Shown here in pieces: positions 16,356 to 63,683 of a DNA stretch of 64,000 nucleotides. Position 1 is the first letter of the stretch. Each line of letters opens with the position of its first letter. This DNA comes from a virus. Where the stretch lies: the IMG/VR virus record IMGVR_UViG_3300032516_000005; one strand, written 5' to 3'. The notes beneath the pieces were generated by a model. It ran no database searches. It was not told the origin of the DNA and saw only the letters and a list, made by a program, of their open reading frames with translations. A program made the position numbers and the translations under genes.

Positions 16356-16661
16356 ATGAAGATCCCAATCTCGCGTGCTGCGCTCGCGGCGATGACGCTC
16401 GACGAGTACCGCACGCACTATCCCGAGGTCGCGTCCGGGGAAGTCCTCGAAGCGATGTACGACGACCGCCTCGTCGCGTTCGACGAGCAGGTTGCGATCT
16501 CTGTGCAACTGGTCGATGAACTCGCCGACGAGGAAGTCATCGCCGACATGGACGAACAGTGCCCGCTGTGCGGTGGCCCGCAGCAAATCCTCGGCAAGCT
16601 CGGGCAGCGCGTGCACCTGCGTTGCCGTAACTGCGGCGCCGATACCAACAGCGCGAGCTAG
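16356..16661 (+). CDS. Hypothetical protein with C-terminal Zn ribbon
   Basis: CPLCGG...LG...RCRNCG. Confidence 0.65.
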   Translation: MKIPISRAALAAMTLDEYRTHYPEVASGEVLEAMYDDRLVAFDEQVAISVQLVDELADEEVIADMDEQCPLCGGPQQILGKLGQRVHLRCRNCGADTNSAS

Positions 16662-17257
16662 CGCTTGCGACGGCGGTAGATCACGATGCCGGTGCCTGCA
16701 GCGGCCAGCAGCACGACGACGCCCGTGATCGCGTACGCGATGGTCCGCTTGCGCGTCACTACAGGCGCCACCTCGCCGAACTGCTGACGCTTCTGCGGTG
16801 TCATGACGATGACACCGACGCGATCGCGGAACTTCCAGCGCTTGTCCAGCTCGTGACGCGTCAACGTCCGACGGTTACCCTTGACGTTCGGGTCCATGAT
16901 CTCGACGAGGCTGGGCTTGACGTCGGTGGCGATGACGAAGTGCCCCTGGCCAGGCCGGGTGAAGCTCTGGATCGCGAGGATCACGGGCACGTCGCGCGAC
17001 GTGTACTGCTCCAGCTCGTCGATCGAGTCGAATTGGCGCGTCTGCGCCCAGTACCCTCGCGCGCGGGCCGCTGCTTCGACCTGATAGCAAGTCGAGCCCG
17101 TCTTGGGGTCGACGCCAACCTCGCGGATCAGATCCCGTTCGTCGGCAGGTTCGTCCCAGTGACCCATCACGGCCTTGAGGGCAGCGGCGCCGCACGAGTA
17201 CGGCTGGATTTGCTGGTACGGCTCGACGTCGCCGAGGTGGATCGCTGCTGCGAGCAT
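16658..17257 (-). CDS. Stand-alone C39-like cysteine peptidase with C-terminal TM anchor
   Basis: QQIQPYSCGAAAL, GHFV, MDP catalytic motifs; TM helix then YRRRKR; TACGCT -10 six nt before ATG. Confidence 0.85.
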   Translation of the reverse strand: MLAAAIHLGDVEPYQQIQPYSCGAAALKAVMGHWDEPADERDLIREVGVDPKTGSTCYQVEAAARARGYWAQTRQFDSIDELEQYTSRDVPVILAIQSFTRPGQGHFVIATDVKPSLVEIMDPNVKGNRRTLTRHELDKRWKFRDRVGVIVMTPQKRQQFGEVAPVVTRKRTIAYAITGVVVLLAAAGTGIVIYRRRKR

Positions 17258-17308
17258 CGGTTTAGCGTACCGTAATTCGGGCTGCCCTTTGAGTGGTATC
17301 CTGCGAGA

Positions 17309-17890
17309 ATGCCGCGCCACGTGTTCACAGCGCCGCAAGCTGACCTCGACGTCTTCGCTCAGATCGACGGGCCGCTTGTGTACTTGGCGGGTCCGATTCA
17401 GGGCTCGGTCAACTGGCAGGCCGAGGCGATCGATATCCTAGGCGAGCTGGCGCCGGACGTTCATGTCGCGTCTGCGCGTGGGCCTGACTTCCGTGGCGGT
17501 GTCGAACGGCACCTGTCGTGGGAGCAGCTGTTCCTCGAACGTGCTGCGCGTGACGGCGTCATCTTGTTCTGGTGCGCGCGCGAGTCGACACACCGTTGCA
17601 ACCGTACGCACGCTGCACAGATGCGGTTCGAGCTGGGTGAATGGGTGGTGAAGGCCAGCGTCGGCCTCGCCAAGGTCACGGTCGGAATCGAGCGCGGCTT
17701 CACGGGTGGGCCGTACCTGCAACGCCGGTTCACGCTCTCGTACCCGAACATCCCGATCTGCCGAACGTTGCGCCAGACCTGTGCCGTCGCTATCGAGACA
17801 GCGCGTCGCGAGACGCCGTTGGTTATCTATCCGCGGACGCTCGAAGAGTTGTTCATGCCGCGGTCGTTTGTCGCGAAGAACAACGGCTAG
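17309..17890 (+). CDS. Nucleoside 2-deoxyribosyltransferase-like protein
   Basis: VYLAGPI..W...WE...ILFW...FELG; TGGTATCCT extended -10 six nt before ATG. Confidence 0.75.
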   Translation: MPRHVFTAPQADLDVFAQIDGPLVYLAGPIQGSVNWQAEAIDILGELAPDVHVASARGPDFRGGVERHLSWEQLFLERAARDGVILFWCARESTHRCNRTHAAQMRFELGEWVVKASVGLAKVTVGIERGFTGGPYLQRRFTLSYPNIPICRTLRQTCAVAIETARRETPLVIYPRTLEELFMPRSFVAKNNG

Positions 17891-18054
17891 CTGTTAGCCT
17901 GACCGTGCCACGTCTTCAGCGTCACTGATCGCCGCACGAACCTCGCGGCCGAGCGCTGCCTGCTCACCGGGCGACAACCGCTTCCACGGCCAGGGTGCTC
18001 ATGCATGGCTCGATGGTAACGCAAAACGCGTAGTAACGCGAGCGGCGATCGCTT

Positions 18055-18070
18055 GATCGCGTACGCGATC
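18055..18070. promoter_or_regulatory. GATC-box palindrome
   Basis: GATCGCGTACGCGATC, intergenic. Confidence 0.65.
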
Positions 18071-18100
18071 GACCCCTGTGGTTCTACCTCCACGCTGAAA

Positions 18101-18550: not shown

Positions 18551-18565
18551 TCGGTCTCGGCGTAA

Positions 18566-19117
18566 CTAACGCCGTTGATAATGCCGGCCAACGCTGGCAG
18601 ATGACGCGCGACAGCGTTTGGTCAAGCGACCGATGCCGAAGCCGATGCCGGTGAGCACCACGAAGGCACCTGCGCCGACCAGTACAGGATGATCGAGTAC
18701 GAACTGCGCTGCGGGATGCTTGTCGAGGAAGATCGCGGTATCGAGAACAGGCACCAGTTTGCTGATGCCTGAGTCTGTCGACGGCGGCGGCTTGGGTGCA
18801 CCGGGTACGGGTGGTGGCGCCTTGGCCGCTGCAAGCGCCTTCAACGTCTTGAGGCGGTTGACGACTTGCGGCAACGCTGGATCCTTGGCGATCCCCATGA
18901 CCGTGTCCAAGTGCGGGCCAGCCTGGTTGAGGATCCCGACAGCCTTGGTGAGCAACTCCGGACCCTTCGCGAGGATCGTTTGAATGTCTTCAGCGACACC
19001 GCCGAAGCCGGCAGGTGCGTAGAACGGCAACCTGCTCAGCCGGTCTTGCAGATCAGTTTCGGCTTCAGTCGACCAGACACGAGGCAGGGGTGCAGGTTGA
19101 TGAGAGGCGAACAACAC
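18566..19117 (-). CDS. Membrane-anchored protein, Pro-rich linker, AGFG motif
   Basis: C-terminal hydrophobic helix plus basic tail. Confidence 0.7.
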   Translation of the reverse strand: MLFASHQPAPLPRVWSTEAETDLQDRLSRLPFYAPAGFGGVAEDIQTILAKGPELLTKAVGILNQAGPHLDTVMGIAKDPALPQVVNRLKTLKALAAAKAPPPVPGAPKPPPSTDSGISKLVPVLDTAIFLDKHPAAQFVLDHPVLVGAGAFVVLTGIGFGIGRLTKRCRASSASVGRHYQRR

Positions 19118-19134
19118 GTGGTTAGCCTATCACC

Positions 19135-19150
19135 GATCGTGTGCGCGATC
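19135..19150 (-). promoter_or_regulatory. GATC-box with downstream -10
   Basis: GATCGCGCACACGATC-GGTGA-TAGGCT-N6-GTG on the minus strand. Confidence 0.75.
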
Positions 19151-19190
19151 ACCGCTTTCGGTCCATGCAGCACGTAGTAGGGTCGCGGCC

Positions 19191-19769
19191 ATGACGCTCG
19201 AAGCCCTGATCGCCGCCATCATCGCGATGTCATTCAACCTGTCGCCAGAACAGGCACGCATTCACGTCGAGGCCGCTACAGCTGCAGCCGCTGAATACGC
19301 GCTTCCCGTCGAGCTTTTGCTTGGTGTCGCCTACGTCGAGTCACGCTTCGATGAGCGTGCCTTGAGTCGCGTGGAGTGCGCGTCCAAGGATCCGACTAGC
19401 TGCGCACGCAAGACAGGCGTCTGGCCATACGCTACGAAACCGCCGAAGGCGCGTCCCAGTTGGTATTGCGGGCCGTTGCAAAGCGGAGGCTACGTGCCGT
19501 GGGCTGAATGCCAGAAGATGCGCACCGACGTCGCATACGGCTACCGTGCGGGTGCACAAGAGCTGGTGACGTGGATGAACGACAAGCACTGCCAAAGTCT
19601 TGGCGTCGATGACCGACTGCGCTGTGCGCTCGCAGGGCACAGCGCTGGCAACGCAGGCGTTGCAGCGTACCGGACAGTCAAGTACGCCGACTGGGCGCTC
19701 CTTGGGCGTGACCGCGTCGTCAAGTTCGCGAACTACGCTGCACGTAAGGCTCAGCAGCCTGGCAGCTAG
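19191..19769 (+). CDS. SLT-like lytic transglycosylase with N-terminal signal or anchor
   Basis: LLLGVAYVESRFD catalytic Glu motif, GPLQ, ALAGHSAG. Confidence 0.7.
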   Translation: MTLEALIAAIIAMSFNLSPEQARIHVEAATAAAAEYALPVELLLGVAYVESRFDERALSRVECASKDPTSCARKTGVWPYATKPPKARPSWYCGPLQSGGYVPWAECQKMRTDVAYGYRAGAQELVTWMNDKHCQSLGVDDRLRCALAGHSAGNAGVAAYRTVKYADWALLGRDRVVKFANYAARKAQQPGS

Positions 19770-20173
19770 TTCTTGGCGATGGCGCAAGACGGATTGTAGG
19801 TCGAGGCTTGACCCGGTCCGACGATCGAGTGCGGGTCCCAGAACAGCACGTTGATCGTGACGGGCGTGTGCCCGGTGACAACGAACACGACCTTGACAGT
19901 CCCGTCCGCTGGGTCGACGAACGGCTCACCGTGCGTGACGACCGACCACGCTGCGAGCGGCGCCTGCGGGATGACCTGCACGCGCGAAGCAGGAAGGGAT
20001 CCGTCGGGCGGTCCCGGCGGCGCGATCGTGATGCCGAGGGGCGGCTCGTTCGGAGACATGCCCGCGAAGCTCTTGTTGACCTGGGTGAGTCCCGTGTCGA
20101 TCGTCGTGTTGACGCAGTTGGTCAACGTGATGCGTCGCCGATTCCAAAGAAGTGCGCCTGCCTTCGTACCCAT
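19766..20173 (-). CDS. Beta-rich protein, paralogue of 60159..60542 (putative virion protein)
   Basis: KAGALLW...INVLFWxPH.IVGPGQA.TYNP shared. Confidence 0.75.
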   Translation of the reverse strand: MGTKAGALLWNRRRITLTNCVNTTIDTGLTQVNKSFAGMSPNEPPLGITIAPPGPPDGSLPASRVQVIPQAPLAAWSVVTHGEPFVDPADGTVKVVFVVTGHTPVTINVLFWDPHSIVGPGQASTYNPSCAIAKN

Positions 20174-20269: not shown

Positions 20270-20716
20270 TTACCAGTCCGAGTCCATCGGGTCGGTTGCG
20301 CGCTTTGGATCACCTGAACGGCGATACAACCAAACACCGCCGGCTGCGAGTACGATGCCCGTTGCGAGTGCGCCGCCGAGGATCATCAAGCCCGCCACGA
20401 GTGGCGTCTGCTTGGCAAAGAAGTCGGGCGCGTCACCGGGCGCGTCACCGAACTGTTGACGTTGGTACGGGATCACTTGCTGCCCGCCATCGGCGACGGT
20501 GTAGTAGTTCGGGTCGCAGTAGTTACAGATGGGCCCCCGCGCGGGATAGCGCCGTCGGTACATGATGGGCGTGCCGCCGGGACCGAACACCGTGGTGGCC
20601 ACGCGGGTCGGACCGATGATCGACTGACTTGGCGCGAGCGGCGAGCCGGCTGGCGGGTACGAGAACGTCGGCATCGCGCTGAGGTCCGGACCTTCGAGTG
20701 TGAAGACATGGGGCAT
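20270..20716 (-). CDS. Membrane-anchored protein with RQQFG motif
   Basis: GAGGAG RBS; C-terminal TM then YRR. Confidence 0.7.
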   Translation of the reverse strand: MPHVFTLEGPDLSAMPTFSYPPAGSPLAPSQSIIGPTRVATTVFGPGGTPIMYRRRYPARGPICNYCDPNYYTVADGGQQVIPYQRQQFGDAPGDAPDFFAKQTPLVAGLMILGGALATGIVLAAGGVWLYRRSGDPKRATDPMDSDW

Positions 20717-20750: not shown

Positions 20751-20766
20751 GATCGCGGACGCGATC
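20751..20766 (-). promoter_or_regulatory. GATC-box with downstream -10
   Basis: GATCGCGTCCGCGATC-ATGG-TACGTT. Confidence 0.75.
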
Positions 20767-21357: not shown

Positions 21358-23832
21358 TCAGTGCAACGAGTAGTTGACGATCTCGTTCGGGGCGATCCAG
21401 CACGCGCGACAGCCTTTGCCGTCAGGTCCACCGAGACCCGGCGGGGCAACAGCTTTGCGGCACGTGTGGCCCTTGTCGTCCGTCGCGTACGCCTGGCAGT
21501 TGTGTACGAGGAGCCCGCCTGCAACGAATTCAGGGTTCTCTCCAGCGACTTCCAGATCCCATGTGGGAACGTTGAGCCCGTCATTCACGATTCGCCGAAC
21601 CGCGACAGTCCGCGTACGTGTGCGTTCCGGAACCTGTAACGCAGCGGCGACTGCGCGCTTTTCATCGTTCAGAATTTGGGCTTCCTGTGCGATGCGAAGC
21701 GCGGCAGCACTACGACCGAGAATCGTGATGAGTGTCTTGTGTGGTTCGCGGTGCACTTCCGAGAACGAGCATCGCGCGCCCAGAGAAGACCACAACAACC
21801 CCAGCTCCGTCGCAAGTGCCGGAGAGGTCGTGTACATGCAGACGTCACCACCCCCCTCGCGACGCACCTTCACGGACCCGTCTGCGCTGAGGAATCCTGC
21901 AAGGAACCCGAGCTGTGCACTGCGTGGTGCTTGTAGAAGTCCCGTGGGAAGGCGCCGTGCCGATGAACCAACGCCGTGACCGTAACCAAACGCGTGCAGG
22001 TACCGTGTGAGTTGTGCACTTGACCAGATGGCACGATGCGCGACCCGTTCATGATCAACAAGATCGTTCGCAGCCATCACGCGCTCATCGAAGCGCGCAC
22101 CGTAGCCGATCCACGATTTGATGACGTGGTCGAGCTTTTGGAGATCCATCAACTTTGCGGCACCAACACCGACTTCAACAGAACCGTCAGCGCGAAAATG
22201 TGCATCACCTGCGAAGTAGCCGAGGACGGCCCCGAGATCGCGCGTCCAGTGTTCAGGGAACGTTGCGACGGTCGATGTGCTACCTGCCCCACGACGATCA
22301 AAGGTGCGATCCCATTCCGATACCGCAACAGGTGTTTCGTGTGAAGCACCTGCATCTTCGGGCATAGCGATCAACTTTGTACCCTCGACGAGTTCGCCTG
22401 CTTCAATCCAGTCTTCAGCGCCCGCGAGGCGGTGATCTGGTGTGACACGCAAACGATGCCCGCCAGTTGTTTCGACGACGAGGGTGGCTTTGACACCGCG
22501 AGGTTCAGCACGGACGACGTCGCGCCAACCGTCACGTGTCATAACACTGTCGCCGATCTTGACGTTCTCGATGTTGACGAGCCCTTGCTGTTGCACGTGA
22601 ATTCGCGTGCCTTCGGCAACGCAGTTCCACGTGTAGCGCAGGTCGGGGCCGGTCATCTTCGGCGGGAACCGCTTCGCGCGATCGTAGACGTACTGCTCCA
22701 GCTCGGGTTCCATGCCGAGGTTCTGTTCGACTTGCAGAACCGTCGTCGCACCTGCCCAACCGGGACCGAGATTCTCCGGACCAGCTGCGTTCACTTCGTA
22801 CGCACTTGGACGGATGATCAGGTTGTTGGCGCTGCGCGCGTGCGGCGCATTGATCTCGTTGACAAGATCAATGCCCCAGCTCGTGGCCCAGATCCGCGAC
22901 GGCGCCCAGAACGTGATGTCCGGTAGCCGATCTGCGATCTGCTTCCACTGCTTCAGGTACTTTGGGCTGAAGAAATCTCCTGAGTCATGGATGCGGAAGA
23001 ACCGTCGACCTGTTGGCTCAGGTGGCAGTGGTTGCACCTGTTCGACGATCGTGATCTCACCCGTCTCGGGGTTGGTGATGGCCTGCTCCTCTTTGACGGT
23101 GCCGCCATTGAGCAGGTAGTCGACGTTGTTGATCGCGTAGACCATCGTCTCGATGAACGCGGTTGACCGACTACCGTCAGGTGCAGGTACTTCGAAGTCG
23201 ATCGCCTGACGCGCCCACAGGAAGCGCAGTGTCTGAGCGAACTGGACCTGACCTGTCGAGTACTGCCCGCCGGTCGCGTAGCACTGCTCGCAGATCGCCA
23301 GCGCGAGATTGACGGGCGTGCTCTGCGGACGCTTGAGGCCGATGTTGACCAACCGCGCATTCGCGCTGCGATCTCCGGGCGGTGCGATCGACTGTCCCGC
23401 GATGGCACCGGGGCATGCACCGCCGATCTGGGGCGCGCCTGCGGGGATGCTCCAGCTCGGGGCGTTCATCTTCGATGTCCACGACAGGAGTTTGTACTGT
23501 TGGACGTTGGGATCCGTCGCTGGATTCCATGCGGGACCGGGACCGATTGGCCGATCGAGAACGAGGTAGACGTTCCTGGTGTCCTTGTCCTTGATGTTGC
23601 CAGGGTGCACGGTGAACTGCAGATCCTGCAAGCTCTCGAACACAGCCTCGCGCACGAAGACCAGCCCAAGCAGGCCGGCATGCGCGTCGGAGAGAACAGC
23701 CTGTGGTGCAGGACACGCAGGATGATCTTCACCGAACTCGTCGCCGCTCAACGAGCCGACGCACATGTCGTAAGCGCGCTCGATCGGCGTGACGTCTTCG
23801 GGAACTTCGAGATGTGGAATGATCGCGGCCAT
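21358..23832 (-). CDS. GP88-like Cys-cluster protein containing an intein
   Basis: SKMNAPSWSIPA..CPGA..ICEQCYA..FRIHDSGDF..W..CRACW..Y..H pattern. Confidence 0.75.
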   Translation of the reverse strand: MAAIIPHLEVPEDVTPIERAYDMCVGSLSGDEFGEDHPACPAPQAVLSDAHAGLLGLVFVREAVFESLQDLQFTVHPGNIKDKDTRNVYLVLDRPIGPGPAWNPATDPNVQQYKLLSWTSKMNAPSWSIPAGAPQIGGACPGAIAGQSIAPPGDRSANARLVNIGLKRPQSTPVNLALAICEQCYATGGQYSTGQVQFAQTLRFLWARQAIDFEVPAPDGSRSTAFIETMVYAINNVDYLLNGGTVKEEQAITNPETGEITIVEQVQPLPPEPTGRRFFRIHDSGDFFSPKYLKQWKQIADRLPDITFWAPSRIWATSWGIDLVNEINAPHARSANNLIIRPSAYEVNAAGPENLGPGWAGATTVLQVEQNLGMEPELEQYVYDRAKRFPPKMTGPDLRYTWNCVAEGTRIHVQQQGLVNIENVKIGDSVMTRDGWRDVVRAEPRGVKATLVVETTGGHRLRVTPDHRLAGAEDWIEAGELVEGTKLIAMPEDAGASHETPVAVSEWDRTFDRRGAGSTSTVATFPEHWTRDLGAVLGYFAGDAHFRADGSVEVGVGAAKLMDLQKLDHVIKSWIGYGARFDERVMAANDLVDHERVAHRAIWSSAQLTRYLHAFGYGHGVGSSARRLPTGLLQAPRSAQLGFLAGFLSADGSVKVRREGGGDVCMYTTSPALATELGLLWSSLGARCSFSEVHREPHKTLITILGRSAAALRIAQEAQILNDEKRAVAAALQVPERTRTRTVAVRRIVNDGLNVPTWDLEVAGENPEFVAGGLLVHNCQAYATDDKGHTCRKAVAPPGLGGPDGKGCRACWIAPNEIVNYSLH
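21499..22623 (-). mobile_element. Intein with LAGLIDADG endonuclease (375 aa) in the GP88-like gene
   Basis: TWN|CVAEGTRI, VTPDHR, LGYFAGDA, LAGFLSADG, TWDLEV...LVHN|C. Confidence 0.92.
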
Positions 23833-23834
23833 GA

Positions 23835-24095
23835 CTAGCGTCTTCCCTTCGAGCTAGCGCACGCCTTTTCGATCATGCGCCAACCTTTGGCTGTCGGTTG
23901 GTAACGTTCCGGTCCCGGTCCACCTGTTGCCGTCCAACCGATGAGTTTGTTGCGCTTGAGCCACGACAGCATCGTCTTCCGATCCTTGATCTGCACGTAT
24001 TCACGCAGCTCACTGGCCGTGAACGAACGGTTGTGTGCCACCGTGCCGATCTTGCAGATCGACGTGACGGAAGGCTTGTAGCGACCTTTCGCCAT
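23835..24095 (-). CDS. Small basic protein, winged-helix-like
   Basis: LKRNKLI...YQPTAKG. Confidence 0.6.
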   Translation of the reverse strand: MAKGRYKPSVTSICKIGTVAHNRSFTASELREYVQIKDRKTMLSWLKRNKLIGWTATGGPGPERYQPTAKGWRMIEKACASSKGRR

Positions 24096-24097
24096 GA

Positions 24098-24592
24098 CTA
24101 GCGACTCCTCTTGCGGCGGCGGCGCCCGATCGCAGCTCCGGCGTCATCGCGCACGCAGTGCATCGTGAACTCGTACGCTGCATCCTTGATCGCCGTTGCG
24201 GGCTTGTAAGCCTTGCCGCCAGCGTGCGTGCTCGCGTCGTACCGCCCGATCGCTTGCTGCATCTCGGCGTAGGACATCTGCGCAGCCGTACAGCGACCGT
24301 TGCGCGCCTTGTTGACAGTGTTCGCCGCGGCGTACTCGATGTCGCGCGATGCCCGTGAAGCCTCGGTGGTGTGTGTAGCTGCAGAGCTGCCGAGGCCGCT
24401 CCGCTTGGCGCTGACCTTGACGATGTTGCGCTCGTCAGCGATGCCCGGTGTCCCGTGCTTGCCACCCATGTTGAGCACCCAGCCACCGTGGCTGGAGCGC
24501 ATCACGGCGCGCCCGGTGCGCTCCTTGCCGAACCGATCGACGATGGTGACACGGTCCCCAGGACGAACGTCGTTGATTGACTTGCGCGCCAT
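24098..24592 (-). CDS. Basic two-domain protein (SH3/KOW-like N-domain, SGLG linker, Arg tail)
   Basis: VRPGDRVTIV; ends AIGRRRRKRSR. Confidence 0.65.
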   Translation of the reverse strand: MARKSINDVRPGDRVTIVDRFGKERTGRAVMRSSHGGWVLNMGGKHGTPGIADERNIVKVSAKRSGLGSSAATHTTEASRASRDIEYAAANTVNKARNGRCTAAQMSYAEMQQAIGRYDASTHAGGKAYKPATAIKDAAYEFTMHCVRDDAGAAIGRRRRKRSR

Positions 24593-24594
24593 GA

Positions 24595-24876
24595 CTAGCG
24601 CTTTCCCTTCCGACGGCAGCGCTTGCCACGACAGCGCTTGCCAAGGCCGCCAGTGCTCCAACACTCGTTGCGATTGCACTCGGCGACGACCTTCTGCATG
24701 CCCGGCAGCCCGTGCGTGACCTTGCAGATCGCGTTCGGGAACTGCTTCGAGCACTTGTGGCCTGCAGCGAGCGCGGCACTTTCTGAGTTATGGAAGCTGC
24801 GCTTCCAGTGCGCGGGACCGCTGACGACGAAGCGATCGGATGAGCCGAGGGACTTCTTGCGACGACGCTTAGCCAT
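24595..24876 (-). CDS. Small very basic protein
   Basis: MAKRRRKKSLG...GGLGKRCRGKRCRRKGKR. Confidence 0.65.
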   Translation of the reverse strand: MAKRRRKKSLGSSDRFVVSGPAHWKRSFHNSESAALAAGHKCSKQFPNAICKVTHGLPGMQKVVAECNRNECWSTGGLGKRCRGKRCRRKGKR

Positions 24877-24878
24877 GA

Positions 24879-25115
24879 TCAGCGGTTCCTCTTCTTGGTG
24901 CTGTTACGACGACGCTTACGTCGTCCAAAGCTCGTGGGACACGCCGTGGGCGTGACAGGTGTCTCGACATCGTGCAGCGGCATCGGCCGCTTGCCACCGG
25001 GGATCAGGATCGTGTGGTGTGCATCGACTTTTCGACGGGTCGCGCGTTTCGCGCCGGCATCGAACGCGAAGCACGCGCCAACAGGCAGGTCTTCGAATGC
25101 GGGACGGCGCGCCAT
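24879..25115 (-). CDS. Small basic protein
   Basis: MARRPAFEDL...SFGRRKRRR. Confidence 0.6.
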   Translation of the reverse strand: MARRPAFEDLPVGACFAFDAGAKRATRRKVDAHHTILIPGGKRPMPLHDVETPVTPTACPTSFGRRKRRRNSTKKRNR

Positions 25116-25117
25116 GG

Positions 25118-25369
25118 CTAGCGCTGCCTCTTCGCGCGCAGCTGACACGAGCTGGCGCGAAGCCGCCAGTCCTTCTTGTACTTGCGCATCAGCGCCGCAC
25201 GCATGTTGTGCTCGGCGCCGGCACAGCCATGCTGCTTCTCAGCGTTGACGTCGACGTAGAGATGCTCGGTGCCTGTGGTCGGCACACGGAGCCCGGCGCG
25301 CCGTAGCTTACGCCCCCACTCGACGACGTTGACGGGTCCGACCCAGACTTTCAGTCGATACGTCGCCAT
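25118..25369 (-). CDS. Small basic protein
   Basis: 83 aa, tight junctions. Confidence 0.6.
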   Translation of the reverse strand: MATYRLKVWVGPVNVVEWGRKLRRAGLRVPTTGTEHLYVDVNAEKQHGCAGAEHNMRAALMRKYKKDWRLRASSCQLRAKRQR

Positions 25370-25621
25370 CTAGCGCCTACGCCGACGTCCCAAGCCCGTG
25401 TTCGGGCAGCTGCACCGACCGGCGATGAAGGTTTCTGCGTCTTTCCGGCCCAGTGCCGTATAGATGCCGTTGCCAGGACCGAAATAGTCCTGCTTGTGCC
25501 GTGTGGGACCGTCGTAGAATCGATAGCGCGTGACGCCGTCACCAGGCGCGTACGTCGCGACGGACAGGCCACACCGATCAGCCTCGGCAGCAAGCGATGA
25601 AGTTTTGCGTTTGGCGGCCAT
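25370..25621 (-). CDS. Small basic protein
   Basis: AAGGA RBS; TYAPGDGVTRYRF; ends TGLGRRRR. Confidence 0.65.
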   Translation of the reverse strand: MAAKRKTSSLAAEADRCGLSVATYAPGDGVTRYRFYDGPTRHKQDYFGPGNGIYTALGRKDAETFIAGRCSCPNTGLGRRRRR

Positions 25622-25652
25622 GCGCGGTTCCTTTGATCACTGGAGTAGGAAG

Positions 25653-25693
25653 CACAAAGGCCACGTACGACGCTATCGCACGTGGCCTCTGTG
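25653..25693 (-). other. Intergenic RNA hairpin, 18-bp stem and 5-nt loop
   Basis: CACAAAGGCCACGTACGA-CGCTA-TCGCACGTGGCCTCTGTG; both mismatches become G-U pairs on the minus strand. Confidence 0.65.
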
Positions 25694-25715
25694 TAGGACT
25701 AGCGCCGAGGAGCGC

Positions 25716-25949
25716 TTAGCGCTTCTTCGCGCGGATCGCGCAGCTCTTGCGACCCTTGGCCCAGCGGTAGCCCTTCTTGAGCCGACCGTTGGCCTTCACG
25801 CCGGCAGCGCTGCAGCCGGTTGCCCGGCCACCGAGCCCGCGGGCCTTGCGACGACGGCGACCCACGAGGGTGGGCAGCTGGCCCATGTGCTTGCGGCGGC
25901 GACGACGCTTACCGAGACCGTCGCCCAGAGTTGGGGTTTCCATGTTCAT
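25716..25949 (-). CDS. Protamine-like very basic protein
   Basis: LGDGLGKRRRRKH...GRRRRK...GRLKKGYRWAKG. Confidence 0.65.
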   Translation of the reverse strand: MNMETPTLGDGLGKRRRRRKHMGQLPTLVGRRRRKARGLGGRATGCSAAGVKANGRLKKGYRWAKGRKSCAIRAKKR

Positions 25950-26014: not shown

Positions 26015-26060
26015 GATCCCACGAGCGATCGCCGACGTCAAGATGATCGCTGCCGCGATC
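26015..26060. promoter_or_regulatory. Tandem GATC-boxes, starts 30 bp apart
   Basis: GATCCCACGAGCGATC (26015-26030) and GATCGCTGCCGCGATC (26045-26060) in a divergent intergenic region. Confidence 0.7.
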
Positions 26061-31123: not shown

Positions 31124-31663
31124 TCATCGTGCTTGCAGAGCAAAAAAGTGTGACGGCTTGAACGTTTCCATTGGACACAACGAACCGCGTCGAACGGCCC
31201 ACGCAGGCACGTCCAACGTCTCGTCCCACCACTTGTCACGGATCACGAACGTGCCCCAACACCATCCCGCCAACACCACGATGGGCAGCTTGTGTAACGA
31301 GACGAGCACGTACGGGTAGTCACCCATGTGCGCGTGTTTTTTTGGGATGATCAACTTGTGCGTGGCCTTACGCACCGACTTGATCTGGATCGATCCGACA
31401 TCGCCCTCCCCACGGCGTAGAGCCCATTCCTCGCGCGTCCACAACCGGCCAGTCCACGGCAGCTTGTAGTGCTTCATGAAGGCAAGCTCGGCGATCGCGC
31501 CCTGAATGTCGATGTCGACGGGTTGGCGGTGCGGATCGATGATGCCGTCGCTGTACGCGCCGTTAGCATCGGAACGACAACGCCCAATTTCTTCTGCGCC
31601 GGCCAGCTCACGAATGGTCAAGGGCACGTCGATGAAGTGCTGAAAGGAATGACGTTGGCGCAT
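31124..31663 (-). CDS. PD-(D/E)xK-like nuclease fold protein
   Basis: GAIAELAF...GDVG.IQIK; similar to 48138..48686. Confidence 0.55.
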   Translation of the reverse strand: MRQRHSFQHFIDVPLTIRELAGAEEIGRCRSDANGAYSDGIIDPHRQPVDIDIQGAIAELAFMKHYKLPWTGRLWTREEWALRRGEGDVGSIQIKSVRKATHKLIIPKKHAHMGDYPYVLVSLHKLPIVVLAGWCWGTFVIRDKWWDETLDVPAWAVRRGSLCPMETFKPSHFFALQAR

Positions 31664-53327: not shown

Positions 53328-53474
53328 AGGAAATGCATGTTGCTACTTGATCGAATTTTGCGCAGAAGCAACAGCACCTTTTGCCGTTGTTAGCGGATGC
53401 CGATGGGGCCGACGTGAACACTGCACAAATCACTCTTGACTTGTCGCACAGTACCTGAAAAGATCCGAGGATAC

Positions 53475-56400: not shown

Positions 56401-56504
56401 ACTGGCGGGAGCCGTACGAGAAAGGTCCCGACGACAAACCGCTGATCGAGAGTGTGCGACGCTCGACGAAGAAGTTCGATTCGTTGCCGGATGACGTAAA
56501 TTAA
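53475..56504 (+). CDS. Large protein: three N-terminal helical repeats and a C-terminal VRGH...W..PY.KGP domain
   Basis: GAGG RBS; 1009 aa. Confidence 0.75.
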   Translation: MAIISAATVERVFSDLHDPKKLAAFADRLKRTQEPFRALITVMTQRCGEDVAAVAMLVASLGWAAIDPDVTRTISAKTLRNALEKVDQLIVEHKLARPTDATTLARVADVLISAQPHLATMIAVWIWHYSERGHVDVTVCAEVLREVAAVIRALEMEGLAIPRVKRKISYEAVDGIYETFANDPSQFQPFSIRLLQQRPELEDYLQRSISKWTSGTRVTGTLLAIATLWRYFDEALIIDVTATEIESTYARLDATYARLDVLRHQSDHPTAAQIFPEAPELARVINDWIHNEVSVGLLSGDYAPDALMALLTIAKLLYDKTAGMVTYREANEVIDELDRDPTKREICFRRLIDGKPGLHLHLQTLKAHLSTIVFGATVVIVPAIWQCLDPESKYDVTAEDMNFAAQKIRQWTDQLRADGVTALAAQQILATQPQLGVALHAWLSAQVIALNEEESNLALKTVLLIACALDLKAKDICMEDTFHFVPSIADRPVRSAAAKVAELPRQLLGYVRESGAACTIDLDVQQLAQQLKEIINGPFDAIVRENVTPGAHFVQFVGRSELSPSVWLRTRLNARGASAGSRKVLINGKRTTASLTRFVPAAVSTLLTDDDALIEAKFYVVQPANAAPSVQTGAVDAATHEAIVANYLGICERLNSLVDAVEVVSPEAGAAERTTQDAERIWPSLRDAVIFELSADAYVQLYEEFAYYIARSAKVSIHPSESLEKILDQLTPAAEKRVTEMVRSGAAAPFPEKLPFKSCFFAYGAGVNETERLTVPAFVVGADTGTILGHLVCESGEVVRFAWCSVDGKTALQFESERLPGQFSWAQPHNLAPWIVNALVDYVNEHKTLIEMGKIGAVYRTTVKKIIARLKLQPVQPPPFYVVYMKDNYVRETGARQAALIKRHIDWQHRWKVRGHDCIRFQRGPLPIDPELLERFARRGYKVFTDTLPDAETFADLHKRGVPEKGPDEWIAILKYWREPYEKGPDDKPLIESVRRSTKKFDSLPDDVN
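54214..54255. repeat. In-frame 21-bp tandem duplication
   Basis: CGACGTATGCACGTCTTGATG x2 (TYARLDA-TYARLDV). Confidence 0.9.
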
Positions 56505-60142: not shown

Positions 60143-60158
60143 CGCTACTTGTTGTGAA

Positions 60159-60542
60159 CTAGGCGGGGTTATACGTGTCAGCTTGACCTGGCCCGACGAT
60201 CGCGTGGGGATTCCAGAACAGGACATTGATCTCGGTGCCTGGCTTGCCGTTGTTCGTGAGCTGCACGTGAACGGTCTGGGTCGTCGAGTCGAAGTAGGGC
60301 TCGCCCTGGGTGATGTCCGTCCACCGCGCCAAAGGCGCGAGCGGGATGACGTGTACGCGCGACGCTGGGAGTGTGCCGTTGGGAGGCGCTATCGCTGCCG
60401 TGACACCCAGTGACGGCTCGTTCGGCGACTGTCCTGCGAAGCTCTTGCTTACCTGCATCAAGCCTGTATCGATGTCGTTGATGCCGGCACCGAGCGTGAT
60501 CCTTTGACGGCTCCACAGAAGCGCACCGGCTTTACGTGACAT
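60159..60542 (-). CDS. Beta-rich protein, paralogue of 19766..20173
   Basis: Extensive identity by eye. Confidence 0.75.
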   Translation of the reverse strand: MSRKAGALLWSRQRITLGAGINDIDTGLMQVSKSFAGQSPNEPSLGVTAAIAPPNGTLPASRVHVIPLAPLARWTDITQGEPYFDSTTQTVHVQLTNNGKPGTEINVLFWNPHAIVGPGQADTYNPA

Positions 60543-60558
60543 ACCCAGGACAATACAT

Positions 60559-60574
60559 GATCGCGTGCGCGATC
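60559..60574 (-). promoter_or_regulatory. GATC-box with downstream -10
   Basis: GATCGCGCACGCGATC-ATG-TATTGT-N7-ATG. Confidence 0.8.
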
Positions 60575-60698
60575 GTTAGATCAAGCGTCGACGTCTCGCC
60601 GCGGGTGGTATGCGCCGGTCGAGAGCTGTTGGTCGTCGCTCATCGCGGGGTAGCGCGCGTTACGGTTCCTGGCAGCGTGCACGAAGCATGTCGCGATT

Positions 60699-61478
60699 CT
60701 ACGCTGCAATCGCCGCGACGTCGTGATCGAACCGTGCGAGGTCGAATCCGTTCGGTGCATGCCGCATCTGTGTGACCCACAGATCATCGACGGCGAACCA
60801 TGCTTCGTCGATGTAGAGGTCATCCCACGCGTACGTGATGTCCGTCTTGTGGATCCACGGCATCGCGCCCCATCGACCACGTTGGTGCTTGGTCAGGATG
60901 AACGCGTGGCCGCCAGCCGAGCCCGGTGCTTCATCAGACTGTCGCTGACCGACAGGGCTGACATCCCAACTCGATCCCTGACGGCCGATCGATGCAGGCA
61001 AGCTCGCACCGATGATCACCGAACCGAATAGGTGTAGTGCTGCGCGCATCTCCAACGTGTCGTTGTGGTTCACGCGGCCGAACCCGCGCAGCTTGTACTG
61101 ACCGTCCCTGAATCCGACTTTGCGGAGCTGCGTGAGCGCGTTGACGATCGTGTCGCCCCGATCGCTTCCCGAGCCCGGCACGCCGTCCCAACCTGTTCCG
61201 TCCTTGTAGGCCTTCAGGACATCGTCGGCCTGCAGATCGCACTTCACGCCGAGCAGCGCGCAACGTTGCTGCACGATGTGCCCGTAGCACGCACGCGTGC
61301 AGTTACCGGCGCGATCGTTGCCCAGGAACGTGTAGTCGCTTGTCGGGCCGGTCCAGTCGTCGATCGGCGGCGGCGCGGTGTAGCCCAGCGTTGACTCGTT
61401 GGCTGCGTAACGCGCGAACCACGGTGCCCGCCGATCGCGCGGTGAGATCGCCGCGCGCCCGAGCTTGCCGATCTGCAT
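60699..61478 (-). CDS. Papain-like (C1-type) cysteine peptidase
   Basis: LGNDRAGNCT.A..H, GGHA, W..., DEAW. Confidence 0.65.
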   Translation of the reverse strand: MQIGKLGRAAISPRDRRAPWFARYAANESTLGYTAPPPIDDWTGPTSDYTFLGNDRAGNCTRACYGHIVQQRCALLGVKCDLQADDVLKAYKDGTGWDGVPGSGSDRGDTIVNALTQLRKVGFRDGQYKLRGFGRVNHNDTLEMRAALHLFGSVIIGASLPASIGRQGSSWDVSPVGQRQSDEAPGSAGGHAFILTKHQRGRWGAMPWIHKTDITYAWDDLYIDEAWFAVDDLWVTQMRHAPNGFDLARFDHDVAAIAA

Positions 61479-61480
61479 GA

Positions 61481-61870
61481 CTAGATGTCGCCTGCTGAAG
61501 TCTTGAACGTTGCGTTGCCAGCTTCCTCGCGACGGAACCGTTCGAGTGTGTTGTATGCGTTCCAGCTGTCAGCCTGGGGCGGCGGGGCAGTCCGGTTGCC
61601 GAGGTAGCTCTGGACGATCTCAGCGAGCGCGCAGCCGCCGATGGCCTTGCCGGCGTTCTTCGCGCGTTGGTAGATCGCGGCCCAGTCCGGCATCTGTCCG
61701 CTGAGCAGCGTCTTGAATTCAGCGATGAGCGATGTGATCTGATCACGGTTCTGGACGGTGCAGTCAACGACCGCACTGATCACGATGGGACCCGGACCTG
61801 GTCCGGGGCAGCCGAGTTGGGGCGCACCGAGACCGAGAGCGAAGACGAGGACGATCAGGAAACGCTTCAT
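61481..61870 (-). CDS. Putative lipoprotein or secreted protein
   Basis: MKR + hydrophobic stretch + QLGC, PGPGPGP. Confidence 0.65.
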   Translation of the reverse strand: MKRFLIVLVFALGLGAPQLGCPGPGPGPIVISAVVDCTVQNRDQITSLIAEFKTLLSGQMPDWAAIYQRAKNAGKAIGGCALAEIVQSYLGNRTAPPPQADSWNAYNTLERFRREEAGNATFKTSAGDI

Positions 61871-61888
61871 GCGCCCGAGCGTATCATC

Positions 61889-61904
61889 GATCGCGGACGC
61901 GATC
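61889..61904 (-). promoter_or_regulatory. GATC-box with downstream -10
   Basis: GATCGCGTCCGCGATC-GATGA-TACGCT-N7-ATG. Confidence 0.8.
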
Positions 61905-61934
61905 GACGTGATCAGTTACGATGGGTTGCTGTGA

Positions 61935-62738
61935 TCATCGTCGTGCTCTTCGTCGTCGCTGTTGCGCTTCTGCTCGCCGCCGCAAAGGGCCTGGAGCGCT
62001 GAGCTGCGTCGTCGCGTGACGTCCGAAGAAGTACCAGAGTACGCCGGCTGAAGCGATTGCCGTTCCGGTCATCGCGACGAGCGGCACCACGAATGCCGGC
62101 AACGGTTTCTTGACGGGTGTGACGACGGCCGGACCGATTTCGATGCCAGGTCCTCGTGCGCCGATCCGCTTCAGGGCTGCGACCGCGGCATTGAGCACGA
62201 AGACGTCGTTCTGCACCAAAGGATCAGCGAGAACGCGGAGTGTTGTGGTCGCTTCGGTGCGGATGTTGTCTGCCGTCGTGTTTGAGATCAGCTGCGCCAT
62301 CCCGTTGATGAGCTGAACCAGCACGCTACCGTCGGTTTCTGCGCGTGCTGCCGTCGACATCTGCAGAATCGCTGCATCAGGGCTAAGCGCACCGACCTCG
62401 GCGAGCTTCTGTGCAGCGATGCGGCGTACCTCAGCTTCGTTGCGATCGATGCCGCCTGCCATGCCCATGGCGCGCCAGCCCAGGAGCTTCCGTGCGATGT
62501 CGAACAACAGGCGATTGTCGCCGTCATCGAGGAACGAGAGCTTTTCGATGTTGCGGAGGACAGCGAGCGGTTCGTTGCCGATCACGGTGCTCGTGCAGAA
62601 CAGGTTGTTGCTGGCCCCACCGTCATCGTTTGTGAAGCCGTTGTTGGCCTGCAGGCGCAAGCAACGTTCGACGCGCGTGTTCAGGTCAACCAGTTCTGTG
62701 CTGGCTGCGCCGAATCCGGTATGCGTCGTGAACAGCAT
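61935..62738 (-). CDS. Membrane-anchored protein with MLFTTHTGFG leader
   Basis: C-terminal TM and Arg tail; TAGATG junction. Confidence 0.7.
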   Translation of the reverse strand: MLFTTHTGFGAASTELVDLNTRVERCLRLQANNGFTNDDGGASNNLFCTSTVIGNEPLAVLRNIEKLSFLDDGDNRLLFDIARKLLGWRAMGMAGGIDRNEAEVRRIAAQKLAEVGALSPDAAILQMSTAARAETDGSVLVQLINGMAQLISNTTADNIRTEATTTLRVLADPLVQNDVFVLNAAVAALKRIGARGPGIEIGPAVVTPVKKPLPAFVVPLVAMTGTAIASAGVLWYFFGRHATTQLSAPGPLRRRAEAQQRRRRARR

Positions 62739-63683
62739 CTAGTAACCGCTCTCTTCGCTTTCGTCGCTCTCGCTGGAAGATGTGTGCGTGCGTGCGTAGG
62801 CGCGCGGGAGCCTGGATGATCCACCGCGTTGGTTGCGATACAGGTAGTACCCAGCCGTGCCCGCGACGCCGAGCACTGCAAGCACGCCGATCACGGTGAA
62901 GATGCTGCGGTTGGATGTGCCGGGTACGTTGGTGCTGGGACGACCCGCCTGGACGTCAGGGAACTTGTTCAGCGCGAGTTCAGCGCACTTGAACCGGACG
63001 TCAGCGTCATCGCTGTTGGCGCCGATGCACGAATCGAGGAGGCCCTTCAGCGTCCGTTCGTCAGACTCGACCTCGGCTTGACGTGCAAGCGCAGCAGCTG
63101 TTGCAGCTTGATTCGCCGCGATGTCCGCAGCAGCTTGCGTCTTGCCGAAGACCGAGATGATCACGGCACCTGTGATTGCGACCACTGAGATGATGAAGAT
63201 CGCGACAAGCACGGGCGGGAGACCCAGACCGTTGGCGTAGTAGTACGGTGCGTACTCACCCAACGTGATTCGACGAGGCTTGCCGACAGGGCCAACGATG
63301 AGCCTGATCGCGCCGGGATTGAACGTGCTACCGAATCCGTTGGCAGCCAAGTCGCTCGGATCGAACGCAGGCACGGACTCGGGCACGGCGTCAGGATCGG
63401 GCAACTGGTCACGGGGCACGCCAGCGCGCGCGATCAACCAGAAGTTGGCCGCTTCTGTGTAGGCCACTTGCGCGGCGTTGTAGCGCTGCAGCATCGACTT
63501 CAGCGCCGCAGGTGCAGGCTTCCCCGCGTCCTTGAACGCCGTCAGGATGAAAACGTATCGCCCGAAGCTGTTGCGCAGCGACGTCTCTGCTACCGCGAGT
63601 GACTGGCCGCGCGCGGTCAGCGAAGGAAGCTGCGCCTGCTCCGGTGGGGCGCCGAAGCCGGCTGATGTCGTCGCGATAAGCAT
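62739..63683 (-). CDS. Two-TM protein with MLIATTSAGFG leader
   Basis: Two hydrophobic helices; AGFG, NGFG, NGLG motifs. Confidence 0.7.
   Translation of the reverse strand: MLIATTSAGFGAPPEQAQLPSLTARGQSLAVAETSLRNSFGRYVFILTAFKDAGKPAPAALKSMLQRYNAAQVAYTEAANFWLIARAGVPRDQLPDPDAVPESVPAFDPSDLAANGFGSTFNPGAIRLIVGPVGKPRRITLGEYAPYYYANGLGLPPVLVAIFIISVVAITGAVIISVFGKTQAAADIAANQAATAAALARQAEVESDERTLKGLLDSCIGANSDDADVRFKCAELALNKFPDVQAGRPSTNVPGTSNRSIFTVIGVLAVLGVAGTAGYYLYRNQRGGSSRLPRAYARTHTSSSESDESEESGY

Follow-up and report, generated by a model that had tools for sequence, protein, structure and literature searches.

A conserved small-(Phe/Leu)-Gly motif at the junction of putative address tags in late proteins of a bacterial virus encoding a C39 protease with a predicted membrane anchor

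Many unrelated late proteins of an uncultivated high-GC bacterial virus (IMG/VR record IMGVR_UViG_3300032516_000005; the analysed stretch of 64,000 nt is called the window) contain a small-(Phe/Leu)-Gly motif, which joins an address tag to the protein body. Three types of tags were seen, namely a short hydrophobic N-terminal leader of the kind ML-(F/I/V)-x-x-..., a run of Arg/Lys residues, and a C-terminal transmembrane (TM) helix that is followed by a basic tail. This system of tags is genuine, and it is conserved. Given the intact membrane-anchored C39 protease in the same virus, it is plausible that the tags are removed in particle assembly, for which C39 processing is the leading candidate mechanism. 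Targeting by the tags, cleavage at the motif and the identity of the cutting enzyme are what we infer from the evidence below.

Leader-bearing and tail-anchored proteins

All sequences quoted in the initial annotation of the window were found where it had placed them. The following genes were compared with homologues or with the related viruses G001 (near-complete), G002 and G003.

61935..62738, minus strand: tail-anchored helical-repeat protein with the leader MLFTTHTGFG, GFG at 62709-62717 (20-sequence alignment)
62739..63683, minus strand: two-TM protein with the leader MLIATTSAGFG, leader GFG at 63651-63659 (8 homologues)
18566..19117, minus strand: tail-anchored protein, leader unit of 39 residues, GFG at 19001-19009 (26 homologues)
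20270..20716, minus strand: tail-anchored Cys-rich protein, QFG at 20447-20455 (orthologues in G001-G003)

In the family of 61935-62738 M1 and L2 are invariant or nearly so, [FL]G is found in 19/20 sequences, and the leader differs in length between homologues through indels. The TM helix (~213-231) is followed by the conserved tail GPLRRRAEAxxRRRRAR. The protein 62739-63683 has invariant residues F10/G11 and G152/G154, with [FL]G in 8/8 homologues and a doubled GFG in two of them (GGFGGFG, AGFGAGFG). Its residues 1-17 are disordered in the model, where the model confidence is low, and internal copies occur as NGFG (63330-63338) and as NGLG (63222-63230), the latter abutting TM1. The third protein starts with (GTG)LFASH...APAGFG, and its leader unit reads QP..WP..WST-E.E.DLQ.RL.RLPFYAP.G[FL]G; G[FL]G follows LPFYAP in 26/26 homologues, the longer of which contain 2-3 tandem units, each with a terminal G[FL]G. 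Across the leader families the [FL]G columns are (nearly) invariant while the flanking columns vary. Conservation in homologues, on which the initial annotation had made its proposal depend, is thus borne out for the three leader proteins. In the Cys-rich protein QQ[FL]G[DN] is kept in the orthologues of G001, G002 and G003. Another G[FL]G, in GIGFGIG at 18635-18643, lies within a TM helix and is no junction site.

Tag-bearing and neighbouring late genes are preceded by a palindrome.

63731..63746: palindrome GATCGCGnnCGCGATC, upstream of 62739-63683
61889, 60559, 20751, 20237, 19135, 18055: further copies, 5' of tag-bearing and neighbouring late genes

The copy at 19135 is located just upstream of 18566-19117 and that at 20751 upstream of 20270-20716; a palindrome-like box at 26045 belongs to the basic operon described below. 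It is solely from these late-type palindromic promoters that we infer the tagged proteins to be virion components.

An operon of small basic proteins

23835..25949, minus strand: head-to-tail operon of seven small basic genes, with [FL]G beside Arg/Lys runs, compared with orthologues
25716-25949, 25370-25621, 25118-25369 and 24879-25115, minus strand: genes of this operon
24595-24876, 24098-24592 and 23835-24095, minus strand: remaining genes of this operon

No Pfam family was found for these proteins. In five of the seven [FL]G directly adjoins an Arg/Lys run. The C-terminal tags read SFG-RRKRRR.., TGLG-RRRRR and GGLG-KRCRGKR.., DGLG-KRRRRR is also among the tags, and a sixth protein ends with AIG-RRRRKRSR. 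A basic N-terminal leader (MAKRRRKKSLG-SS) has its internal counterpart in AKRSGLG-SS. The forms SGLG, SLG, GGLG, SFG, TGLG and DGLG, which had been listed beforehand for the basic proteins, are all present. The junctions between [FL]G and the basic runs are conserved in three related viruses, with SFG-RRRKRR and GDGLG-KRRRR each found in 4/4 orthologues. In 24098-24592 the motif coincides with a point of gene fusion or fission: the C-terminal half is a gene of its own in G002, starting with MATKRKRRRSRRGLG-DS, and so is the N-terminal half in G001.

Frequency of the motif

The initial annotation had proposed to compare the frequency of the motif in late and other proteins. With motif classes that were set post hoc, after the data had been seen, it is above background in the late-cluster proteins and at background elsewhere: G[FL]G occurs 8 times in 11 late-cluster proteins versus 2.1 expected (3.7-fold; 0/300 within-protein shuffles), with the control tripeptides G[IVM]G and G[AS]G at expectation, and 10 times in the other 60-odd called proteins versus 10.0 expected. 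Since these other proteins do not avoid G[FL]G, the tripeptide alone would be insufficient as a cleavage site. In the basic operon 7 cases of [FL]G beside a basic run were seen versus 0.40 expected (0/2000 shuffles), and 5 of G[FL]G versus 0.51. A start of the type ML-(F/I/V)..[GASQ][FL]G is shared by 3-4 proteins of the window and 6-8 proteins of G001, which belong to differing families. In G001 the N-terminal pattern M[LI]x3-12[GASQNT][FL]G is found in 6/16 tail-anchored versus 2/205 other proteins (Fisher 1.4e-6).

The C39 protease

16658..17257, minus strand: stand-alone C39 cysteine peptidase, 199 aa (Pfam, conserved catalytic residues, AF2/Foldseek)
17231..17239, minus strand: H-L-G (protease residues 7-9), where the disordered N-terminus (1-8) meets the fold
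16775..16783, minus strand: Q-F-G in the protease linker, ~15 residues before the TM helix (homologue comparison)

The protein consists of a catalytic domain (~10-152), a linker with RQQFGE (157-162), a TM helix (~170-195) and the tail YRRRKR. It exceeds the Pfam cut-offs for PF03412 (48.1 bits, cut-off 22) and PF13529 (36.9 bits, cut-off 24). None of 16 homologues departs from Q15/Q16, C22, H106 and D122; Q16 stands six residues ahead of C22, as the C39 family requires. In a phmmer alignment the Gln, Cys and Asp match the ComA peptidase domain; the counterparts are presumably Q11, C17 and D112. The AF2 model (pLDDT 87) has its best Foldseek matches in PCAT1 (6v9z), ComA (3k8u) and LahT150 (6mpz), with a probability of 1.00 and a TM-score by target of at most 0.89. 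The assignment to C39 made in the initial annotation therefore holds with respect to family cut-off, catalytic residues and fold, together with a predicted membrane helix. The gene is intact and kept in every relative whose contig spans the locus; that of G003 stops ~2 kb short.

The motif brackets the protease domain on both sides. Within the linker [FL]G or GLG is found in 8/10 TM-bearing homologues and is duplicated in one of them (QQFGFGQ). RQQFGE at residue 157 has a counterpart in 20270-20716, RQQFGD at residue 86; both stand ~15-16 residues ahead of a single C-terminal TM helix, so that this earlier observation is confirmed. MLAAAIHLG, the start of the gene at 17257, had also been taken as a leader. 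The sequence is there, residues 1-8 have a pLDDT <50, and [LF]G occupies this position in 13-14/16 homologues. However, LG six residues ahead of the QQ motif is a feature of the protease family, and in several homologues it stands at residues 2-3 (MLGQV...), where there is nothing to remove; it is therefore a poor mark of a leader.

Comparison with known systems

Canonical C39 sites are GG, GA and GS, and the leaders end in Gly-Gly, Gly-Ala or Gly-Ser and form a helix with hydrophobic residues at -4, -7 and -12 (PMC6363468). The viral enzyme shares family, fold and Gln/Cys/His/Asp spacing with the C39 domains of AMS/PCAT (ComA PEP 3K8U, LahT150 6MPZ, PCAT1 4RY2/6V9Z), which strip N-terminal leaders with a terminal Gly, and the family of 18566-19117 resembles C39 leaders in having a helix and then a Gly motif. 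In contrast to AMS/PCAT, the virus-encoded enzyme is a separate protein that carries a C-terminal TM anchor of its own and has no ABC transporter, its putative substrates are membrane and basic proteins of 80-310 residues instead of exported peptides, and the motif also precedes TM helices and adjoins Arg tails. If the cut follows Gly, Phe or Leu would be located at -2, and the residue after [FL]G is A, G or S in part of the instances and D, Q, E, K or R in others. With the leader rule broken and no ABC exporter found (in G001-G003 the search for ABC_tran gave P-loop fragments only and nothing above cut-off), the system does not belong to AMS/PCAT bacteriocin processing. Of the claim that the protease acts at the motif, the intact anchored C39 enzyme and the conserved, enriched motif at tag/body junctions stand, while Phe/Leu departs from the C39 rule.

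The capsid-targeting sequence of T4 is a short N-terminal leader shared by unrelated internal proteins, which directs them into the particle (PMC3012670). That of IPI-III has ~10 residues, and the leaders found here are likewise short and common to unrelated proteins, whose location in the particle is presumed. In T4 the leader is removed at a simple consensus, (L/I)-x-Glu, by the prohead protease gp21, an assemblin-like serine protease. T4 has no membrane, in contrast to the system described here, for which targeting and cutting are proposals.

Vaccinia I7L acts at Ala-Gly-X in core proteins and probably also in the membrane protein A17 (Ala-Gly-Ala), and the proteases of adenovirus and ASFV cut at Gly-Gly-X (PMC1198262). 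AVP, pS273R and I7L are thus viral cysteine proteases that cut many core proteins after the Gly of a two-residue motif; the residue before it is Gly or Ala there and Phe or Leu here. The basic DNA-associated core proteins pVII and pX are among the substrates of the adenovirus protease. These three enzymes are of clan CE with an Ulp1-like fold and act in eukaryotic hosts, whereas the viral C39 belongs to clan CA; as its fold is C39/papain-like, it is no clan CE maturation protease, and the likeness would be convergence, not homology.

The order of motif, TM helix and basic cluster is known from sortase, exosortase and rhombosortase signals; here Q-[FL]-G precedes the TM helix by ~15 residues, and RRRKR comes after the helix. 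No LPXTG, PEP or GG motif is found, and unlike such signals the viral motif has further copies at N-termini and within soluble basic proteins. A sortase-type sorting signal was rejected, since among the scanned proteins both a secretion signal (N-termini such as MLFTTHTGFGAAS... have neither the charged n-region nor the hydrophobic h-region of such a signal) and a sortase-like match are missing. The automatic annotation of JGI names two homologues 'LPXTG-motif cell wall-anchored protein'.

A possible maturation mechanism and its alternatives

We tentatively propose that [G/S/A/Q]-[F/L]-G would be a junction code between a removable address tag and the functional body. The tags would carry the proteins to the assembling particle, the anchored ones to the membrane and the basic ones to DNA, and a membrane-anchored viral cysteine protease, with C39 at 16658-17257 as leading candidate, would then cut after Gly; an intact N-terminus would be for example MLFTTHTGFGAASTELVDLNTR, and one after the proposed cut AASTELVDLNTR. 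This scheme is a possibility that falls short of an even chance. Arguments for C39 are the motif enrichment limited to late-cluster and basic-operon proteins, the N-terminal signature tied to C-terminal anchors in G001, the conservation of [FL]G within variable, indel-rich segments predicted to be disordered, its position exactly at tag/body borders including the fusion/fission point, the tandem duplications (GFGGFG; 2-3 leader units), the intact conserved enzyme bracketed by the motif, and the T4, vaccinia, adenovirus and ASFV precedents. Papain-fold enzymes of clan CA usually prefer a bulky hydrophobic residue at P2, with which the motif would be compatible. The layout of N-domain, TM helix and basic tail, common to C39 and the anchored substrates, would place the active site on the same membrane face as the leaders and pre-TM linkers, but the topology of a protein with one helix, an extended N-domain, a poly-Arg tail and no signal peptide is ambiguous. 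Other points against C39 are Phe/Leu at -2, leaders of 10 residues that are shorter than known C39 leaders, the N-terminal LG at residues 2-3 of homologues, G[FL]G at expectation in other proteins, the palindrome of the tag-bearing genes, which is missing directly upstream of the C39 gene, and a more remote virus whose C39 is TM-anchored but whose available 14 kb contain no such tags. Somewhat less likely than not is the further-reaching version that in this lineage of large uncultivated bacterial viruses the two-residue (Phe/Leu)-Gly code marks N-terminal leader, Arg/Lys and TM tags, which a C39 enzyme anchored in the viral membrane and retargeted from Gly-Gly to hydrophobic-Gly strips in maturation. 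If true, this would be a convergent bacterial-virus counterpart of the Gly-motif maturation in adenovirus, poxvirus and ASFV and the first role of C39 beyond peptide export, with soluble domains and Arg-rich peptides set free inside the particle.

It is somewhat unlikely that the motif is an uncut recognition or hinge element, either a docking linear motif or a flexible tag-body joint, so that the tags stay on and C39 has another substrate. A hydrophobic knob between flexible Gly residues could let one assembly factor or capsid or membrane protein dock many cargoes, with the retained Arg tails binding DNA and the retained TM helices serving as anchors. Conservation and enrichment suit binding as well as cutting, the variation in copy number (GFGGFG; 2-3 helix plus GFG units) is typical of avidity-type linear motifs, and the strongly conserved tail behind the TM helix, GPLRRRAEAxLRRRRAR, seems to have a function in the mature protein; the departure from C39 specificity fits as well, as do those protease homologues in which LG, at residues 2-3, is impossible as a leader site. 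Yet docking comes without a candidate receptor, gives no obvious reason for a placement at the borders of three chemically different tags and leaves two conserved membrane-anchored cysteine enzymes of the lineage without substrates.

The second of these enzymes, a Transglut_core protein (PF01841, above cut-off in G001 at 139725-140039 and in G003), is an equally placed candidate cutter. Its gene in G001 has a palindrome and tail-anchored ML...G[FL]G genes (140590-144197) as neighbours. We consider it unlikely that this enzyme or a host protease cuts the motif, while C39 has another role, for example on one substrate of its own or on the host, although the canonical C39 pocket takes only Gly at -2 and the palindrome regulon does not include the C39 gene. 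The Transglut_core protein has an N-terminal signal-anchor (TM residues 32-50, preceded by basic residues), so its catalytic domain may face away from the cytoplasmic small basic proteins, and the C39 domain, bracketed by the motif, has an architecture like that of the substrates. Very improbable is an origin by chance, composition or shared ancestry, in which Gly/Leu-rich high-GC proteins yield [FL]G and the leaders are alike by paralogy. Some paralogy is possible, since 61935-62738 adjoins 62739-63683 and several carriers in G001 are in tandem, and the post hoc motif classes favour chance. But the within-protein shuffles reject composition, the control tripeptides show the expected counts, the carriers include families (C39 enzyme, helical-repeat, Cys-rich and small basic proteins) with no detectable similarity beyond the tag, and the [FL]G columns stand out against variable flanks. 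The shuffles, together with the conservation in families unrelated to one another, largely refute this explanation.

A papain-fold protein outside the system

60699..61478, minus strand: papain-fold protein, not part of the system (phrog_19005, structural neighbours)

The initial annotation had named this gene as an alternative protease. It has no match in Pfam and matches phrog_19005, a family of unknown function. Its structural neighbours in the Atlas are Peptidase_C1 proteins fused to PG_binding_1, Glyco_hydro_19 or Muramidase. Because of these fusions in relatives from its phage family it was set aside as maturation protease and is probably an enzyme of cell-wall lysis. The gene comes after a signal-peptide/lipoprotein-like gene at 61481-61870.

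The virus and its relatives

The window has a G+C content of 62% and carries replication genes of virus type: a ribonucleotide reductase, SNF2 and DEAD helicases, a D12 methylase, a primase and, as a single gene of 868 residues (31663-34269, minus strand), a uracil-DNA-glycosylase-superfamily domain joined to a 3'-5' exonuclease and a family A DNA polymerase (UDG-PolA fusion). The virus group is without a cultured member. No close relative was found among 50,697 GenBank phage records, and literature searches gave no account of this group or of the [FL]G motif. Three IMG/VR contigs are syntenic with the window at 40-85% protein identity, G001 (196 kb, about 90% complete), G002 (65 kb) and G003 (91 kb). 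Taken whole, these contigs were used as independent test material, and genome-wide tests were run on G001 in place of the window's own genome. Two blocks, at 16.6-21.4 kb and 59.4-63.9 kb, are unlike the replication core. Copies of the late-type promoter-like palindrome GATCGCGnnCGCGATC precede the genes of both blocks and of an operon at 23.8-26.0 kb.

Tags joined through an [FL]G motif

Hydrophobic leaders, Arg/Lys runs and TM anchors are joined to the protein body through [FL]G, and the motif sits where tag meets body, in stretches for which the models show no order (residues 1-8 and 161-170 of the C39 protease in its AF2 model, residues 1-17 of 62739-63683 in a low-confidence model). Three genes carry the motif in a leader:

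61935-62738, minus strand: start MLFTTHTGFG-AAS
62739-63683, minus strand: start MLIATTSAGFG-APP
18566-19117, minus strand: start (GTG)LFASHQPAPLPRVWSTEAETDLQDRLSRLPFYAPAGFG-GV

All three proteins end in a TM helix and a basic tail. Homologue sets drawn from 5.8 billion proteins retain the [FL]G in 19/20, 8/8 and 26/26 sequences, respectively, and it stays in place while the leader length varies through insertions and deletions. The preceding residue is mostly Gly, with Ser, Ala or Gln in fewer cases, in agreement with the [G/Q/S]-[F/L]-G of the initial annotation. Two homologues of 62739-63683 have the GFG tripeptide doubled (GGFGGFG, AGFGAGFG), and the longer homologues of 18566-19117 contain two or three tandem copies of a whole 40-residue unit, each with a terminal G[FL]G. 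In 61935-62738 the tail past the TM helix (residues 245-267, GPLRRRAEAxLRRRRAR) is conserved above most of the protein among 19 homologues, which suggests that it has a specific function and is not a mere stop-transfer signal.

In G001, at least six further proteins with a tail anchor, from other families, have the ML...[FL]G start. A single operon behind a palindrome encodes four of these (MLIAHYGAFG, MIVSSYGNGFG, MLFTTTISGAFG, MLIQAHSGGNGFG), and another starts with MLQTQYYGNGFGGFG. With alternative starts permitted equally for every gene, the signature is present in 6 of 16 tail-anchored G001 proteins versus 2 of 205 others (Fisher 1.4e-6). A DNA-level origin of the shared ML start, by leaderless mRNA or promoter overlap, was dropped because the gene starting at 62738 is internal to its operon and begins directly after the upstream stop codon.

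The motif also stands before anchors. The protease (RQQFG-E) and 20270-20716 (RQQFG-D) have it about 15 residues upstream of the helix, which bears out the shared RQQFG[ED] reported initially. The site in 20270-20716 is QQ[FL]G[DN] in 3/3 relatives, that of the protease is [FL]G or GLG in 8/10 anchored homologues, and an NG[LF]G with both glycines invariant directly precedes TM1 of 62739-63683. The reading of the QQ[FL]G sites as Gln donors for a transglutaminase was dropped because most sites are without Gln.

The basic proteins said to bear the motif at domain borders or poly-Arg tails are encoded by seven abutting small genes (23835-25949, minus strand), which were missed by the composition-based gene finder (GC3 list) and analysed separately. 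In five of the seven the motif lies directly at an Arg/Lys run, including an internal site of 24098-24592:

...TSFG-RRKRRRNSTKKRNR
...TGLG-RRRRR
...GGLG-KRCRGKRCRRKGKR
MNMETPTLGDGLG-KRRRRRK...
MAKRRRKKSLG-SSDRF...
...AKRSGLG-SSAATH... (internal, 24098-24592)

Orthologues keep the tags SFG-RRRKRR (4/4) and GDGLG-KRRRR (4/4). The internal SGLG of 24098-24592 is a fusion point: the downstream half is a separate gene in G002, starting with MATKRKRRRSRRGLG-DS, and the upstream half is a separate gene in G001.

Enrichment of the motif

Observed and expected motif counts, with residues shuffled within each protein

Eleven late-cluster proteins of the window, G[FL]G: 8 seen, 2.1 expected; reached in 0/300 shuffles
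Remaining proteins called (small basic genes left out), G[FL]G: 10 seen, 10.0 expected
Basic operon, G[FL]G: 5 seen, 0.51 expected; reached in 0/2000 shuffles
Basic operon, [FL]G beside a basic run: 7 seen, 0.40 expected; reached in 0/2000 shuffles
G001 TM proteins, G[FL]G: 13 seen, 6.2 expected; p ~0.01
G001 other proteins, G[FL]G: 37 seen, 28.3 expected; not significant

The control classes G[IVM]G and G[AS]G are at expectation. The motif classes were picked after the data had been seen; this choice has no bearing on the conservation across unrelated families. Counts of [FLM]G ahead of basic runs in all six frames are informative only within the conserved operon; elsewhere, wrong frames rich in Arg swamp them.

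The C39 protease

16658-17257, minus strand: C39 peptidase, start ATG at 17257

The assignment of this gene as a membrane-anchored C39 peptidase holds. The protein matches Pfam PF03412 with 48 bits (cut-off 22), 16 homologues all have Gln15/16, Cys22, His106 and Asp122, and the catalytic residues align with the ComA peptidase domain. PCAT1, ComA and LahT150 are the nearest structures to its AF2 model (pLDDT 87). These enzymes belong to ABC transporters, whereas the viral protein stands alone and its C-terminus consists of a linker, one TM helix and YRRRKR. An exhaustive search gave 777 relatives, of which the nearest have about 200 residues and the same C-terminal anchor. No ABC domain above cut-off was found in G001-G003. 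G003 is without the gene only because the contig stops about 2 kb short of the locus.

The protease's own start, MLAAAIHLG, had initially been counted among the leaders as well. Its N-terminal LG, six residues upstream of the QQ motif, is typical of the family, and in several homologues LG makes up residues 2-3 (MLGQV...); it therefore cannot count as a self-processing site. The closest homologue found, P0057, has an extra 70-residue N-terminal domain (..EVEREHTTDPRTAQRIAMDHLVEDPLYYEKL..) linked to the protease by RRAFG-DVEPYQQ. A similar segment, ..AVELEHTTDHK.., begins the G001 membrane protein 113381-113860.

Putative removal of the tags

The tags on late proteins would be cut off by the C39 enzyme at the small-(Phe/Leu)-Gly junction, giving a neo-N-terminus such as AASTELVDLNTR in place of intact MLFTTHTGFGAASTELVDLNTR. 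The enzyme has the same plan of N-domain, TM helix and basic tail as the anchored carriers, in which a long N-domain lacking a signal peptide is followed by a single helix and a poly-Arg tail. We therefore infer that its active site lies on the same membrane face as the carriers' leaders and pre-TM linkers, whatever the true topology. On the basis of this shared face, tag removal by the C39 enzyme is the best single hypothesis, tentative as it is.

The leaders of T4 internal proteins are removed by the head protease. As on the tag-bearing proteins here, a short leader is common to unrelated proteins in T4, which loads them through it into the head (PMC3012670). Two-residue Gly motifs are cut by the vaccinia I7L, adenovirus and ASFV proteases; the I7L site is Ala-Gly-X, probably including that of the A17 membrane protein (PMC1198262). 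Canonical C39 sites have Gly at -2 (PMC6363468), whereas the motif here has Phe/Leu, and the following residue is too varied for the site to be re-read as Gly-Ala or Gly-Ser. Papain-fold enzymes usually prefer a bulky hydrophobic P2 residue.

Besides Phe/Leu at -2, the protease's own LG speaks against C39 as the tag cutter, as does the lack of a palindrome upstream of its gene. Moreover, other proteins show no avoidance of G[FL]G, and a more distant virus whose C39 is also anchored has no visible tags in a 14-kb piece of its 150-kb contig; the contexts of other more distant C39 homologues are short contigs. A complex prediction for the C39 domain (1-170) with the 18566-19117 leader (1-60) scored 0.00, without controls, and counts neither way. 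Another candidate for the cutter comes from the relatives: they carry a second cysteine enzyme with a membrane anchor, of transglutaminase-core type (checked in G001 and G003), whose gene adjoins a palindrome and tag-bearing genes. The papain-like protein 60699-61478, suggested initially as the alternative protease, was rejected. It has a papain fold, belongs to a family common in tailed phages, has no sequence match in the PDB, and has structural neighbours fused to peptidoglycan-binding, GH19 and muramidase domains. The gene before it, 61481-61870, is signal-peptide or lipoprotein-like; the pair is read as a lysis cassette and not as a maturation enzyme.

The initial observation is confirmed and extended; new are the link between signature and tail anchor, the tandem leader units, the fusion or fission point at the motif and the exact conservation counts. 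The interpretation as maturation is partly supported, namely for motif and protease, and not for the fit to C39 specificity. Should the tags be cut, this group of large bacterial viruses would have a maturation code that is both simple and testable. C39 peptidases, known from bacteriocin export, would then also act in virus assembly, and the family would gain a new P2 specificity. Adenoviruses, poxviruses and ASFV, which mature through cysteine proteases acting at Gly motifs, would have a prokaryotic parallel. Even without cutting, the shared 10-residue start and C-terminal anchor on many unrelated proteins are a usable marker, with which the proteins of the particle and of the membrane can be predicted for these viruses from sequence alone.

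Other genes of the window

The paralogous genes 19766-20173 and 60159-60542 (both minus strand; 127-135 residues) each lie directly behind a palindrome. The two proteins have the pattern MxxKAGALLWxRxRITL...NVLFW[DN]PH[SA]IVGPGQA.TYNP and are about 65% conserved in all relatives. They have no family match, and an Atlas structure-neighbour search on 19766-20173 was uninformative, with only weak fimbrial/beta-sandwich leads. Gene 19191-19769 (plus strand), transcribed divergently from the palindrome at 19135, has a weak SLT lytic-transglycosylase match (19.1 bits, under the 21.3 cut-off) and may be part of entry or lysis.

The block at about 12991-16600, without orthologues in G001-G003 and including an IS1595-family transposase (15063-16097), is probably a recent insertion adjoining the C39 gene. 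Between 52000 and 56504 the G+C content falls to 0.56; a 1022-residue ORF (53436-56504) is without a Pfam or PHROG match, and none of the three relatives has an orthologue of it. Inteins interrupt three genes:

21358-23832, minus strand: GP88-like protein, intein Hint and LAGLIDADG
41830-44586, plus strand: 918-residue protein, intein Hint and homing endonuclease, exteins without Pfam family match
5988-8009, minus strand: AAA ATPase with intein splicing domain

The relatives may be without the latter two inteins, because tblastn matches start past the intein (residue 628 in 41830-44586, residue 364 in 5988-8009). The AAA ATPase adjoins a DUF2201 putative metallopeptidase/VWA-like protein (4536-8009, minus strand, for the pair); both are about 80% identical in relatives, and the pair is similar to MoxR/VWA chaperone systems.
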